Sequence record: NC_047776.2
Origin: Escherichia phage ESCO5
DNA: 64,000 bases
Strand: one strand, 5' to 3'
Each line of letters opens with the position of its first letter. Position 1 is the stretch's first letter. The notes under the pieces are model-generated. The model was not told the origin of the DNA and made no database searches. It saw nothing but the letters and a program-made list of their open reading frames with translations. A program made the translations under genes and the position numbers. This document shows positions 5,814 to 55,190 of this stretch, one piece after another.

Positions 5814-6212
5814 ATGAAAAAGATCATCGTAGGTTTCTTGTTACTCATTGCATCACTTGGAACAGCAAGTGCGTCTCAAGTTTATGAGTGTGTGTCAGAT
5901 GTGGTTGTTAAAAATCTGAAAGGTGAAGTGATTTCTGGTCCTAAGAAAATGGCTTCTGTTATCATTAATAAAGATAACTCCTTTATCCTTAAAAATTCGG
6001 GTGGTGCTTTGATGAGTGGCATTCTGCAATACACAGGAGAAAAAAGTAAAGATGGTAGTGCTATGTACGGTTCACAACAGTTTATTGGCACTACTGAAGT
6101 TGTGATGATGCGCACAGAGTATCGAGACACTTTGGCTTGGTTTGCATTTCTAAAAAATGATAAAACAATAACGAATGTTCTTACTCTAGAAGCTGATTGC
6201 ACGCAACGATAA
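5814..6212 (+). CDS. Secreted or periplasmic protein
   Basis: ORF with SD AGAGGAGAG; N-terminal signal peptide MKKIIVGFLLLIASLGTASA. Confidence 0.55.
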   Translation: MKKIIVGFLLLIASLGTASASQVYECVSDVVVKNLKGEVISGPKKMASVIINKDNSFILKNSGGALMSGILQYTGEKSKDGSAMYGSQQFIGTTEVVMMRTEYRDTLAWFAFLKNDKTITNVLTLEADCTQR

Positions 6213-6221
6213 GGGGTATTT

Positions 6222-6668
6222 ATGACTAAAATGAGACATTATGCTGTAAACTGCAACGATGTTTGGCGTTTGTGTCCTGATGATCCGACAGAAGGCACAT
6301 TTGTAAGATATGAGGATTATAAAGAGTTATCAGATGCTGTGATCGCATTGTTAACTGATATCCGTTCACGTTATCCAGGACAAGATTTCACTTGCCCTCA
6401 CATCAAACTTCTTGCTTGTCTGGTAGAAGGTGAGAAAGAAGTGGAAGATGGCTTCAAGCGTGTAGAGTATCAAGGTGAAACTTTAGAGGTTCCTGAATTT
6501 GTTAATTATATTGCAACAGATTCGAGTGGCGAGCGTTATGGCTACAGCCATAAGCCAGAGATTCCTGATTGGATTCCCGCTTGGAGATATTCCGTTAGTA
6601 CCGGAGACTATATCTTCCTTGGTGTAGGTAGTAGTAAGGATTGGCGTTTCTCTTTGACAGAGGTTTAA
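6222..6668 (+). CDS. Hypothetical protein
   Basis: ORF with SD AAGGGG upstream. Confidence 0.5.
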   Translation: MTKMRHYAVNCNDVWRLCPDDPTEGTFVRYEDYKELSDAVIALLTDIRSRYPGQDFTCPHIKLLACLVEGEKEVEDGFKRVEYQGETLEVPEFVNYIATDSSGERYGYSHKPEIPDWIPAWRYSVSTGDYIFLGVGSSKDWRFSLTEV

Positions 6669-8573: not shown

Positions 8574-8602
8574 TTGACAGAAGGATCTGTCTTTGTCATA
8601 AT
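8574..8602 (+). promoter_or_regulatory. Sigma70-like promoter (TTGACA, 17 nt spacer, CATAAT)
   Basis: Consensus -35 and near-consensus -10 upstream of the ORF at 8632. Confidence 0.5.
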
Positions 8603-9733: not shown

Positions 9734-9946
9734 ATGAAGGCACATTACCCTCATCCCTTTGATCCTAAAAACAAAGCCGTAATTCTTCGTCAGTGGCAAC
9801 GGGTTTGTCGTACTAAATGTCCAATTAATAGCCAACACAATGTGGACAAGGATTATCTTGGGACATTTGTTGAATACACTTACATAGACAAAAACAAGCG
9901 TAAACAACATGTCGAGGAATACTGCTTAAAAGTAGAATGGCTGTAA
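9734..9946 (+). CDS. Hypothetical protein
   Basis: ORF with SD CAGGAGG upstream. Confidence 0.4.
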   Translation: MKAHYPHPFDPKNKAVILRQWQRVCRTKCPINSQHNVDKDYLGTFVEYTYIDKNKRKQHVEEYCLKVEWL

Positions 9947-9958
9947 ATAATAAATACC

Positions 9959-9987
9959 TTGACAAGTGTTTATTCGTTTTGTAAAGT
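9959..9987 (+). promoter_or_regulatory. Sigma70-like promoter (TTGACA, 17 nt spacer, TAAAGT)
   Basis: Consensus -35 hexamer upstream of the recombinase gene. Confidence 0.5.
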
Positions 9988-10016
9988 GAGAATACAGCAA
10001 TGGTTTAGGAGTGGTT

Positions 10017-10688
10017 ATGAAAAAGTTTGTTGTTTACAGTCGTCTTTCTAAACAGAAAAAAGGTGAGGCACAATATGGTATGGAGAGCCAAGAGAACGAT
10101 ATCCGTTACTTCTTAGACTCTGTGCCTGATGCTGAAGTTATTGGTCAATTTTCTGAATACTATTCGGGTAAGGGCGATTGGAAGCAACGTAAGGAACTGG
10201 TTAAAGCGGTTGAAATGTGTAAAGCTACCGGAGCAACTTTATTGGTAGCTAAAGTTGACCGCTTGGGTCGTAACAACGCCTCCGTAGCAACTCTTCTAGA
10301 GATGATCGATGTTAAGATAGCCATCATGCCAGACGCAGATAAAATGGTTATACAACTTCTATCTGTTCTGGCTGAACAAGAAGTTAGAGGTATTGCTGAT
10401 CGCATTAAAAAGGGTCTTGCTGTAGCAAAAAGTAAAGGTGTTTTATTAGGCAGTGCTAATCCTAAAACTGCTGCTGCACGTAGAAAAGGAAAAATGGAAT
10501 ACAATTCTGTTAAAGCAGACGCTTTTGCAGAGACATTCCGTGAACGCTTAGAAATCCTTAGAGATTTAAATACACCTTACAAAACTATTGCTGAAAAATT
10601 CAATAGTAAGAAAATCGCAACAGCACGTGGTGGTAAGTGGGATGCTAAAACTGTTTCTCGCTTGTGTGCTAGATTGAACATTAAATAG
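10017..10688 (+). CDS. Small serine recombinase (resolvase/invertase type)
   Basis: N-terminal YSRLS catalytic-serine motif and VDRLGRN motif; C-terminal helix-turn-helix; SD AGGAG before ATG 10017. Confidence 0.7.
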   Translation: MKKFVVYSRLSKQKKGEAQYGMESQENDIRYFLDSVPDAEVIGQFSEYYSGKGDWKQRKELVKAVEMCKATGATLLVAKVDRLGRNNASVATLLEMIDVKIAIMPDADKMVIQLLSVLAEQEVRGIADRIKKGLAVAKSKGVLLGSANPKTAAARRKGKMEYNSVKADAFAETFRERLEILRDLNTPYKTIAEKFNSKKIATARGGKWDAKTVSRLCARLNIK

Positions 10689-17132: not shown

Positions 17133-17173
17133 GCTAGAACCCACCTAAATCGAACAGAGACGCTCTAAAATAG

Positions 17174-17205
17174 AAAAGGCACCCACTTGGGTGCCTTTGT
17201 TTTAT
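17174..17205. terminator. Bidirectional terminator at the convergence point of the plus and minus blocks
   Basis: GGCACCC-ACTT-GGGTGCC hairpin flanked by an A-run upstream and a T-run downstream. Confidence 0.65.
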
Positions 17206-24957: not shown

Positions 24958-25283
24958 TTATCCTCCTCAAAATCTAAGAAAATAAAAATATTCACCTTTC
25001 CTTCAATCTCTTGTTCTAAAACAAGATCGGCAAATTCTGCATAAGCTTTCTCTTCAACTTTTTCAATATGTTCTGCGGCATCTTTAAAAGGTGTATCCCC
25101 ATCCACCTTTACTAATAAGAAAAGAGATCGCATTTCGACGCTTTTACTGTTACGAGGAAGGAAATCTACAGCTTCAACAATTCTCCAACCCAAATAGCCA
25201 GGGGTTTTATGAATCTCCCCTAAATACTTTTCTAAGATTTTACGACCCTCGTCGATAAGGGCTTGTTCTGTAGTAATTTCCAT
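24954..25283 (-). CDS. Hypothetical protein
   Basis: 109-aa ORF. Confidence 0.45.
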   Translation of the reverse strand: MEITTEQALIDEGRKILEKYLGEIHKTPGYLGWRIVEAVDFLPRNSKSVEMRSLFLLVKVDGDTPFKDAAEHIEKVEEKAYAEFADLVLEQEIEGKVNIFIFLDFEEDK

Positions 25284-26075: not shown

Positions 26076-26120
26076 AATCCCTCCTTAAAATACTCCCTCC
26101 GAAAAGGGAGTATAAGTATA

Positions 26121-33780: not shown

Positions 33781-34107
33781 TTACCAGACATGTTGAGAAA
33801 TAATAGTTTCCGTTTTAATGTTATATTTTTCAAGTAGCTTTGCATAGGCTTCTTTTGCATTCTCATTCAATTGCTCAAGATCTACAGCTATGCTTCCTTC
33901 TCCTCCTTCTAAATCAAGGCCATATATGCAATAAGACTCATCCGCATCGTAGAAAGGAGAGATGCGGCTTAAGTCAAGACCTTCTTGTAAGAACCAGTTA
34001 AAATCTCCGTCAAATTCTTCTTCAATTCTAGGATCTTCTCCTACAGCCTCTTCCCACTTATTTAAAGGTGCACCCTGTAACATACGCCATTCGATATCAA
34101 TACCCAT
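33781..34107 (-). CDS. Hypothetical acidic protein
   Basis: 108-aa ORF. Confidence 0.45.
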   Translation of the reverse strand: MGIDIEWRMLQGAPLNKWEEAVGEDPRIEEEFDGDFNWFLQEGLDLSRISPFYDADESYCIYGLDLEGGEGSIAVDLEQLNENAKEAYAKLLEKYNIKTETIISQHVW

Positions 34108-34261: not shown

Positions 34262-34403
34262 CTTCTACCTCCAACCCTTCTTTTTCAAAGACTACTACTC
34301 GTCCCTCACCATGACAATTCAGGCAAGGAAATGTTACCATAATTTCCACTTCCATCTGTCCAGTCCCACCGCACACAGGACAAAAAATAAGTTTTTCAGC
34401 CAT
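34251..34403 (-). CDS. Small zinc-ribbon protein (50 aa)
   Basis: ORF below the track cutoff; CPVCGG...CLNCHG. Confidence 0.35.
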   Translation of the reverse strand: MAEKLIFCPVCGGTGQMEVEIMVTFPCLNCHGEGRVVVFEKEGLEVEDGE

Positions 34404-54980: not shown

Positions 54981-55190
54981 ATGTAGTACTCTGTACTCAA
55001 GTACTGTACTCCGTACTAGATTAATAATTATTAAATATTAATAATAAATAATTATTAGATCTAACAAACAGGTACAGTGTATCAGAACTGGTACGTACAG
55101 ATCAACTTCTATCAATTAAAAAATAAAATAATAAATTATTATAAATAATACTTGATCTATAGATCAGTATGAAGTACAGTACAGAACATC
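54981..55190. repeat. Repeat-rich AT-rich non-coding region: five tandem GTACT motifs (54984-55017), AT palindrome TAATAATTATTA (55021 onward), GTAC-containing segment, palindrome GATCTATAGATC (55154-55165), inverted AGTACAGTACAG (55171-55187)
   Basis: Read directly from the sequence; lies between the divergent minus-strand and plus-strand blocks. Confidence 0.6.

Follow-up and report, generated by a model that had tools for sequence, protein, structure and literature searches.

A predicted small serine recombinase in a putative early gene block of Escherichia phage ESCO5

The recombinase gene and its protein

We analyzed a stretch of 64,000 nucleotides of Escherichia phage ESCO5 (NC_047776.2; hereafter, the window), which carries at positions 10017–10688 a gene predicted to encode a small serine recombinase. 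The gene lies where the original prediction, made from the DNA alone, had placed it, and its start was refined. The open reading frame (ORF) listed by the program begins at GTG 10011 and has 225 amino acids; the biological start is taken to be ATG 10017, which gives a protein of 223 amino acids with the stop codon ending at 10688, because AGGAG is located 5 nucleotides ahead of this ATG and GTG 10011 overlaps the AGGAG. In the annotated relatives, the gene has the identical extent of 672 nucleotides. The gene and its parts were as follows.

10017–10688, plus strand: serine recombinase gene, 223 codons plus stop, with the codon of Ser11 at 10047–10049
10007–10011, plus strand: ribosome-binding site AGGAG, 5 nucleotides 5' of the ATG, read directly from the sequence
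9959–9987, plus strand: predicted sigma-70-like promoter TTGACA-17-TAAAGT, from a consensus scan (10/12 matches)
10017–10433, plus strand: catalytic domain (residues 1 to ~105) and long helix E (residues 109–139), from AlphaFold, Foldseek, and the family profile
10461–10673, plus strand: predicted four-helix DNA-binding domain (residues 149–219), ending directly past the ...ATARGGKWDAKTVSRLCARL helix

The recombinase appears to be transcribed from its own predicted host-type promoter, inside a block of small rightward genes that reads as early. In the consensus scan that returned the 9959 promoter, promoter-like sites were no more common in the region than in shuffled sequences. A TTGACA-type promoter was also found directly 5' of the homologous genes in phage alia, ICP1, and Vibrio and Shewanella phages. 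When the promoter-like sites at 8574, 9042, and 9959 were aligned, the -35 hexamer began 58 nucleotides ahead of the ATG at all three. These sites are consecutive, each standing before the ATG of the next gene, and thus form a cassette of very regular geometry.

The protein is very probably an active serine recombinase. Residues 5–142 matched the Pfam Resolvase family PF00239 (E = 5e-18; 66 bits versus a cut-off of 23.3), as did 33/33 family members. Among the PHROG families, matches were obtained to PHROG 125 "DNA invertase" (2.6e-32) and PHROG 95 "integrase" (7.6e-22). Matches of the single protein to the Tn3 and gamma-delta resolvases in the PDB were weak (E about 1e-6); the family profile matched Gin best (6e-18) and Tn3 resolvase at 3e-16, which places the catalytic domain nearest to the small enzymes. 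The catalytic YSRLS motif that had been claimed for this ORF is present at residues 7–11. Its serine, which the original prediction had proposed to check by alignment, is S11; it was invariant in the 33 homologues and aligned with S10 of the resolvases, with family-profile position 10/11 falling on residue 9/10 of gamma-delta resolvase.

Eight residues (Y7, R9, S11, Q25, R58, D81, R82, and R85) were invariant in the 33 homologues, down to 29% identity. Seven of these corresponded in pairwise and profile alignments to residues of the Tn3/gamma-delta resolvases (Y7/R9/S11/R58/D81/R82/R85 to Y6/R8/S10/R45/D67/R68/R71), and the column of Tn3 D36 is occupied by E47 here and by D or E throughout the homologues. 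The residues reported to be crucial for catalysis by Tn3 resolvase are Y6, R8, S10, D36, R68, and R71 (PMC2794168).

An AlphaFold model built on the homologue alignment (mean predicted local distance difference test score, pLDDT, of 88.6) consisted of a beta-alpha core, helix E (109–139), and four C-terminal helices. Foldseek matched this model to Sin, gamma-delta resolvase, TP901-1, and Bxb1; the matches below E 0.004 were exclusively serine recombinases, and Bxb1 was the top match, with an alignment spanning the whole length. Compared with two relatives differing by 1.6–2.5% of nucleotides, the gene had accumulated 27 synonymous changes and 1 non-synonymous change, and the neighboring genes had proportionally more amino-acid changes than the recombinase in the same two relatives. 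These comparisons show strong purifying selection on a gene with intact active-site residues. From the invariant residues, the confident model, and the 27:1 codon changes together, the gene is judged to be functional, with selection acting on catalysis beyond DNA binding.

The C-terminal domain appears to stem from the first part of the "recombinase domain", which in large serine recombinases comes after the catalytic domain. Its four helices were placed at residues 149–172, 175–183, 188–197, and 210–219 in the model, and the protein ends just beyond the ...RGGKW....V.RL helix. Residues 187–216 weakly matched positions 19–48 of the 102-position PF07508 "Recombinase" profile (E 0.003, below the cut-off), which was matched by 18/33 relatives (best 6e-06), and the family profile could be aligned with the Bxb1 and SPbeta integrases right through the C-terminus. 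The Pfam family HTH_7 (PF02796) was matched neither by the protein nor by any of the 33 relatives. The helix-turn-helix (HTH) typical of resolvases and invertases, as originally proposed for this end of the protein, thus gave way to the N-terminal part of PF07508 (18/33 against 0/33 for HTH_7). The original exclusion of a large serine integrase held, as the protein has 223 amino acids and lacks zinc-ribbon and coiled-coil domains. No NCBIfam family was matched at its cut-off. The layout of IS607-type transposases was not found, since the catalytic domain is N-terminal and there is no tnpB-like neighbor. A fold search with the isolated C-terminal domain was dropped because its model was too poor (pLDDT 54.5).

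By these features, the protein is placed in an uncharacterized clade of ~220-amino-acid proteins that combine a resolvase-type catalytic domain, helix E, and a short HTH domain. Full-length homology with the same two domains was detected in 93 database clusters, on 124 plasmids, and in 542 IMG/VR stretches. The sequence gives no sign of a new kind of system; the enzyme appears to be of a known kind. A functional study of the gene was not found in the literature, and a paper on ICP1 Adi was rejected as such because it concerns a different protein.

Phage lineage and inheritance of the gene

The window was 97–100% identical to the genomes of Phapecoctavirus (phAPEC8-like, Stephanstirmvirinae), which are virulent myoviruses of ~150 kb. 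A virulent lifestyle was also reported by the authors of the ESCO phages (PMC10269720), and the description of the phage as apparently lytic is in line with this type. Positions 25001–50000 of the window were 100.0% identical to phage REC (OM386667, 156 kb), a laboratory recombinant of ESCO5 and ESCO37 (PMC10269720). As a 98.8–100% identical relative, REC was used as a whole-genome stand-in for the repeat searches. Four records of 155–161 kb (PV659873, PV691511, PV763039, and PV682947, corresponding to WPEC1/2/6/4) gave 10–14 matching places per 25-kb query and the other Phapecoctavirus records one; these four are probably scrambled or redundant assemblies.

The recombinase was present at 99% identity or more in 61 phage records, and among the matches listed, every phAPEC8-like and phi92-like record matching this region contained the gene. 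Identity was 74% in phiWec179, ~57% in phi92-like phages (Justusliebigvirus), 52–55% in Klebsiella relatives, 35–38% in Vibrio and Shewanella myoviruses, and 30% in some ICP1 isolates; the rV5-type sister group had no protein match. The gene is therefore already present in public records, where it is loosely annotated: it is named DNA invertase, resolvase, serine recombinase, hypothetical protein, or, by mistake, "methionine ABC transporter ATP-binding protein". According to the ESCO phage paper, recombinase genes were not predicted (PMC10269720).

A 70-amino-acid ORF located just 5' of the recombinase (9734–9946) showed 72–81% DNA identity over ~200 bp to the tk.3/tk.4 region of T4-like phages. 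The match extended to many of these phages (31/40 rows of a sample spread over 803 matching records), which implies that unrelated phage families have exchanged DNA. The database name of this ORF, "putative ABC transporter ATP-binding protein", appears to be an annotation error that has spread between records, and in some of them, the ABC-transporter name has been transferred onto the recombinase itself.

The position of the gene differs between the genera. In Phapecoctavirus, it is found within the long block of small rightward genes, and in alia (phi92-like) and Klebsiella phage phi1_175008, it is part of a leftward DNA-metabolism block with the order lysozyme, PhoH, HslV-like peptidase, methyltransferase, two small genes, recombinase, small gene, ... 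phosphatase, and DprA-like. A tblastn search with the alia neighbors revealed that the window retains all of them (39–87% identity) and that the position flanked by its counterparts of alia gp179 and gp177 is empty.

26076–26120, minus strand: empty ancestral position, a 45-bp spacer that contains a terminator-like hairpin, flanked by the alia gp179 and gp177 homologues

This gp179/gp177 point is occupied by the recombinase in phi92-like phages, Klebsiella phages, and one uncultivated phage. The latter, an IMG/VR contig (L028), has the methyltransferase, the gp179 homologue, and the recombinase in the order of alia, and Shewanella phage 1/40 has PhoH, HslV, ... recombinase, and DprA-like, followed by rIIA/rIIB. 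The order PhoH-HslV-...-recombinase-...-DprA is thus found in alia, phi1_175008, L028, and Shewanella 1/40, with neighbors 33–54% identical. As the same module order recurs in Shewanella 1/40 and L028, the phi92-type position is read as ancestral. These comparisons show that the recombinase was inherited vertically across a wide lineage of virulent myoviruses of ~130–150 kb and that Phapecoctavirus has moved it into the early block. Unrelated phages had no near-identical copies, nor were there terminal repeats or duplications at the junctions of either gene position, both of which are tight. Mobility of the gene as an element of its own was rejected in view of these repeat-free junctions and of the deep synteny, which shows the gene to be ancestral.

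Upstream dyads and possible roles

Full-length homologues (33–40% identity) were encoded on 124 plasmids, several of which are complete replicons of 5.8–6.5 kb, and family members were also present on many IMG/VR contigs. Among 80 IMG/VR loci, no conserved partner gene was found, the largest neighbor cluster comprising 12 loci. The 300 bp upstream of each gene were scanned for dyads with a 2-bp center, using a threshold of 11/14 complementary bases. Dyads of the form 14+2+14 (at least 11/14 complementary) were obtained for 16/79 relatives versus 20/702 control windows; they lay mostly at -31 to -54, and several shared the core ...CTAACG-NN-CGTTAG....

On the Klebsiella plasmid pIIIF7SW-P1_2, a 16+2+16 dyad (TATCATTTGTTTGCCG-AA-CGGCAAATTTATGATA) is located 34 bp 5' of the start codon. 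In Shewanella phage 1/40, the dyad (ACCCAGTGACTTAA-TA-TAAGGTTACTGGGT) occurs once in the 139-kb genome, where it overlaps the -10 region of the promoter that serves the recombinase. The dyad was single-copy in 13/13 relatives checked, a search that covered the whole plasmid or, as far as the contig reached, up to 6 kb on either side of the gene. No experimental study of these relatives was found in the literature. One site per replicon, placed on the promoter of the enzyme itself, would be expected of a resolution system with autoregulation and not of an invertase.

Because the plasmid and phage relatives commonly carry one upstream dyad with a 2-bp center, of which no second copy was found in the DNA searched, we favor single-site recombination between genome copies, of the res/lox type, combined with autoregulation (probability of roughly 0.3–0.35). 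The enzyme would bind a single cognate site per phage genome and, once bound, repress its own promoter. Recombination would proceed site by site between genome copies, as in res/resolvase or Cre/loxP, and multimeric replication intermediates would thereby be resolved or reshuffled; the enzyme would neither flip a switch nor integrate the phage. This favored role is a modified form of the concatemer resolution suggested in the original prediction and is based on the appearance of the relatives. More tentatively, the active recombinase that the lytic lineage has kept so long may serve a step of the lytic cycle, either a Cre/lox-like reaction at a single site on the replicating, terminally repeated genomes or a directed attack on host or satellite DNA; the lineage comprises phAPEC8-like and phi92-like phages and phages of Klebsiella, Vibrio, and Shewanella.

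Several known systems resemble the ESCO5 enzyme in part. With the Tn3/gamma-delta resolvases, the ESCO5 enzyme shares the catalytic domain, helix E, the crucial residues (Y, R, S, acidic, R, R), and the small size, and its relatives share a site over the gene's own promoter, consistent with resolution and autoregulation. It differs in its weak sequence similarity to these resolvases, in its longer C-terminal domain (~80 amino acids, not HTH_7), and in coming from a virulent phage and not from a transposon. A res site of three subsites was not found by the ESCO5 gene, where one weak dyad of chance level is present; accessory sites were not systematically searched. Cre/loxP of P1 is a functional analogy, with a single site per genome and recombination of genome copies (cyclization and dimer resolution) as proposed here. 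However, Cre is a tyrosine recombinase of unrelated family and chemistry, and P1 is temperate and plasmid-borne, while the ESCO5 site is a candidate only. Further counterparts are the uncharacterized ~220-amino-acid "recombinase family protein" genes carried by small plasmids and by temperate phages, such as those of pIIIF7SW-P1_2 (Klebsiella) and pMaD11 (Marinovum), with full-length identity of 33–40% and the same two-domain layout. Genes of this type commonly have a clear upstream dyad of 30–34 bp with a 2-bp center, whereas the Phapecoctavirus gene has a weak one.

9949–9974, plus strand: weak candidate binding or crossover site AATAAATACCTT-GA-CAAGTGTTTATT, a 12+2+12 dyad with 9/12 complementary positions; low confidence

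Neither the window nor the REC genome has a second copy of this dyad, which overlaps the -35 hexamer. Several observations on it and on the relatives weigh against single-site recombination. The dyad is at chance level, as three dyads of equal quality were found within 2.7 kb. Its left arm is the AATAAAT element shared with the 8574 promoter, and its right arm is not conserved in phiWec179. A comparable conserved dyad was absent 5' of the gene in alia/phi92-like and Klebsiella phages, and searches of the window and of REC did not yield a convincing site in a genome of the ESCO5 type. The 79 relatives are not independent, several contigs having the same site, and the nominal P of 4e-08 for their dyads is overstated. 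A dyad over a promoter can also be a mere operator. Some of the relatives' elements hold a tyrosine or large serine integrase as well, from which it follows that the small enzyme is not the integrase there; this shows no more. To our knowledge, phages with short direct terminal repeats form and package concatemers without a site-specific resolvase, and since the rV5-type group has no protein match, the enzyme would not be a general requirement of this genome architecture.

Other candidates for a site were considered and rejected. Strong dyads with a 2-bp center were no more common genome-wide than in shuffled sequence, and the matches were terminators, an AT-rich palindrome at 55023–55056, and one near the genome end. 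The relatives' core CTAACG-NN-CGTTAG occurred in the window at chance level. The AT-rich palindrome is a 16+2+16 dyad (AATAATTATTAAATAT-TA-ATAATAAATAATTATT, 14/16) that did not exceed the shuffled expectation; it is located inside a divergent intergenic region of ~480 bp ahead of the tRNA cluster and may be part of an origin or promoter region.

The lack of a credible site in the phage genome would also be explained if the target were non-phage DNA (host chromosome, prophages, plasmids, or satellites), with the site outside the phage genome. The enzyme would then excise, invert, or break the target element as part of early take-over or counter-defense. Compatible with this are the location of the gene among small early genes with its own predicted host-type promoter and the location of the ICP1 homologue in a stretch of genes without old reference gp numbers, which suggests a variable region. 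There are also precedents: recombinase/att systems are battlegrounds between lytic phage and satellite (PMC9638900, PMC6002521), and prophage invertases affect phage infection (PMC12529663). We regard this explanation as unlikely. Direct evidence for it is absent, the ancestral location of the gene is a DNA-metabolism module and not a take-over block, the phages that conserve the gene, of Escherichia, Klebsiella, Vibrio, and Shewanella, have no obvious common target, and the relatives retain the site at their own gene.

More doubtful still is that the protein acts mainly by binding specific DNA sequences, as a regulator or in an architectural capacity, or that the gene has persisted as a selfish element or a relic, with recombination of minor importance in the life cycle. 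The operator-like overlap of the relatives' dyads with the core promoter, the different position of the gene in the two genera with tight junctions and its own promoter, and the lack of a protein match in the rV5-like sister group would fit such a role. However, the catalytic residues are invariant family-wide, which is needless for pure DNA binding, and purifying selection is strong. The deep synteny speaks against free mobility, as does the absence both of near-identical copies in unrelated phages and of terminal repeats around the gene. In place of this regulator or relic, single-site recombination remains our preferred reading.

Inversion, integration, and other observations

The recombinase could be linked with no invertible segment, attachment site, or prophage state. 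Within the window, inverted repeats amounted to pairs of chance level and one terminator pair. The whole-genome search for inverted repeats that had been recommended was carried out as a self-comparison of REC and returned a single inverted repeat, a 22-bp bidirectional terminator. Positions 1–25 kb and 25–50 kb of the window and the 23-kb tail-fiber module were collinear in the ~60 best-matching Phapecoctavirus records listed, which differed by same-strand cassette replacements; this comparison covered window 1–50 kb and the tail-fiber module, and not window 50–64 kb or the REC 100–156 kb match. The tail-fiber genes are all on one strand.

These results bear on the suggestion that the enzyme is a DNA invertase flipping a segment elsewhere in the genome, e.g., a tail-fiber or host-range switch like those of Gin of Mu and Cin of P1. 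The name "DNA invertase" of PHROG 125 and of many records and the best PDB profile match, Gin, speak for it, and like Gin, Hin, Cin, and Pin, the ESCO5 enzyme is phage-encoded and small. However, phages of the ESCO5 type have no invertible segment and no inverted gix/hix-like sites in the regions compared; REC yielded nothing beyond its terminator and the window nothing better. The gene does not adjoin the tail-fiber genes, and its DNA-binding domain is not of the Hin/Gin type. Given also the ~60 collinear records, the tail-fiber switch is largely refuted on sequence grounds, and we consider it very improbable.

Least credible, and likewise largely refuted by the sequence comparisons, is an integrase or excisionase of a cryptic temperate or episomal lifestyle, for which the PHROG 95 match and the location of some relatives near the ends of prophage-like contigs can be cited, since the chromosomes and plasmids of 5,426 complete E. 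coli genomes gave no match to the gene, no close copies were found on plasmids, zinc-ribbon, coiled-coil, repressor, and att-like sequences are all absent, and the lifestyle was reported to be virulent (PMC10269720). As originally stated, no attachment-site-like repeats flank the gene. The ESCO5 protein resembles the Bxb1, phiC31, SPbeta, and A118 integrases in the C-terminal helices, which match the start of the PF07508 domain, and in the full-length Foldseek alignment with Bxb1; it has 223 amino acids versus 450–600 and ends past the first HTH of that domain, and comes without zinc ribbon, coiled coil, attP/attB, or lysogeny.

Site-specific recombinase genes are routinely read as markers of a temperate lifestyle in phage-therapy screening. 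The phAPEC8-like and phi92-like phages are popular therapy candidates in which this gene is inconsistently named, and an enzyme that is neither integrase nor switch would remove a safety worry. It is mildly surprising that a strictly lytic lineage has kept a catalytic serine recombinase so long. A role in the lytic cycle, if worked out, would add a new use of serine recombinases and, if true, extend site-specific recombination beyond lysogeny, inversion switches, and transposition. The enzyme might also offer a compact recombinase with a simple site.

All direct repeats in the REC self-comparison were early promoter-plus-stem-loop cassettes. The direct repeats of the early region were considered as recombination sites for cassettes and rejected, as they are units of a promoter and a 5' stem-loop. 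At least about ten copies of the early promoter (TTGACA-N17-TAAGAT/TAAACT) were found in REC 143–156 kb (L009 42000–50000 and L010, outside the window), each followed by the conserved stem-loop GTAGGGCGGCAATGGTGCCGC, a ribosome-binding site, and a small ORF. These units are reminiscent of the promoter-early-stem-loop cassettes of T4-type phages. At the junction of the rightward early block and a leftward block in the window, a bidirectional terminator hairpin (AAAAGGCACCCACTTGGGTGCCTTTG) is located at 17170–17203.

The left end of the window falls in a terminal repeat. Positions 1–329 and 150866–151194 at the ends of the Schickermooser genome form a direct repeat of 329 bp, which is the sole long repeated sequence in the virion DNA besides the promoter cassettes. 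Terminal repeats of 342 bp were reported for the phi92-like phage BME3 (PMC12210895).

1–76, no strand: right-hand 76 bp of the 329-bp direct terminal repeat, corresponding to Schickermooser 254–329

A cyclization site in this repeat was considered and rejected, because its best dyad was 11/14 and was not conserved in alia; the repeat is instead rich in Fur-box-like sequences. About 400 bp to its left, the two genera share a non-coding block of 125 bp (REC about 155850–155990; alia L020 about 33800–33925) with 81% identity. Two strong palindromes (CTTGCAAT-A-ATTGCAAG and ATTAGCAGCCTATG-N7-CATAGGCGGCTAAT) lie in this block, which is a candidate packaging or replication signal. These palindromes are unlikely to be crossover sites of a serine recombinase because their centers are of odd length.

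Two observations concern the wider family. In the prophage of relative P0071 (L017), which also encodes a large serine integrase, two similar dyads (CGTCTGAAATA...TATTTCAGACG) were found at 21–49 and 905–938, 860 bp apart; four small genes lie between them, the small recombinase is 5 kb away, and the dyads may delimit an invertible or regulated cassette. A search of this prophage context for an invertible segment gave nothing convincing. The IMG/VR contig 3300025809_001961 (L027) carries two copies of the recombinase family, at 4–657 and 6007–6633, about 5 kb apart.

The E. coli Fur box has the consensus GATAATGATAATCATTATC. A sequence close to it (AATGATAATTATTCTCATT) occupies positions 1–19 of the window, inside the direct terminal repeat, and another Fur-box-like sequence was found at 74–92 of the Schickermooser terminal repeat. 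In alia, a near-perfect copy (GCAAATGATAATCATTATCAGC) is present in a repeat-like region of L020 (about 34280–34300). Together, these sequences hint that something at the genome end may be controlled in response to iron.

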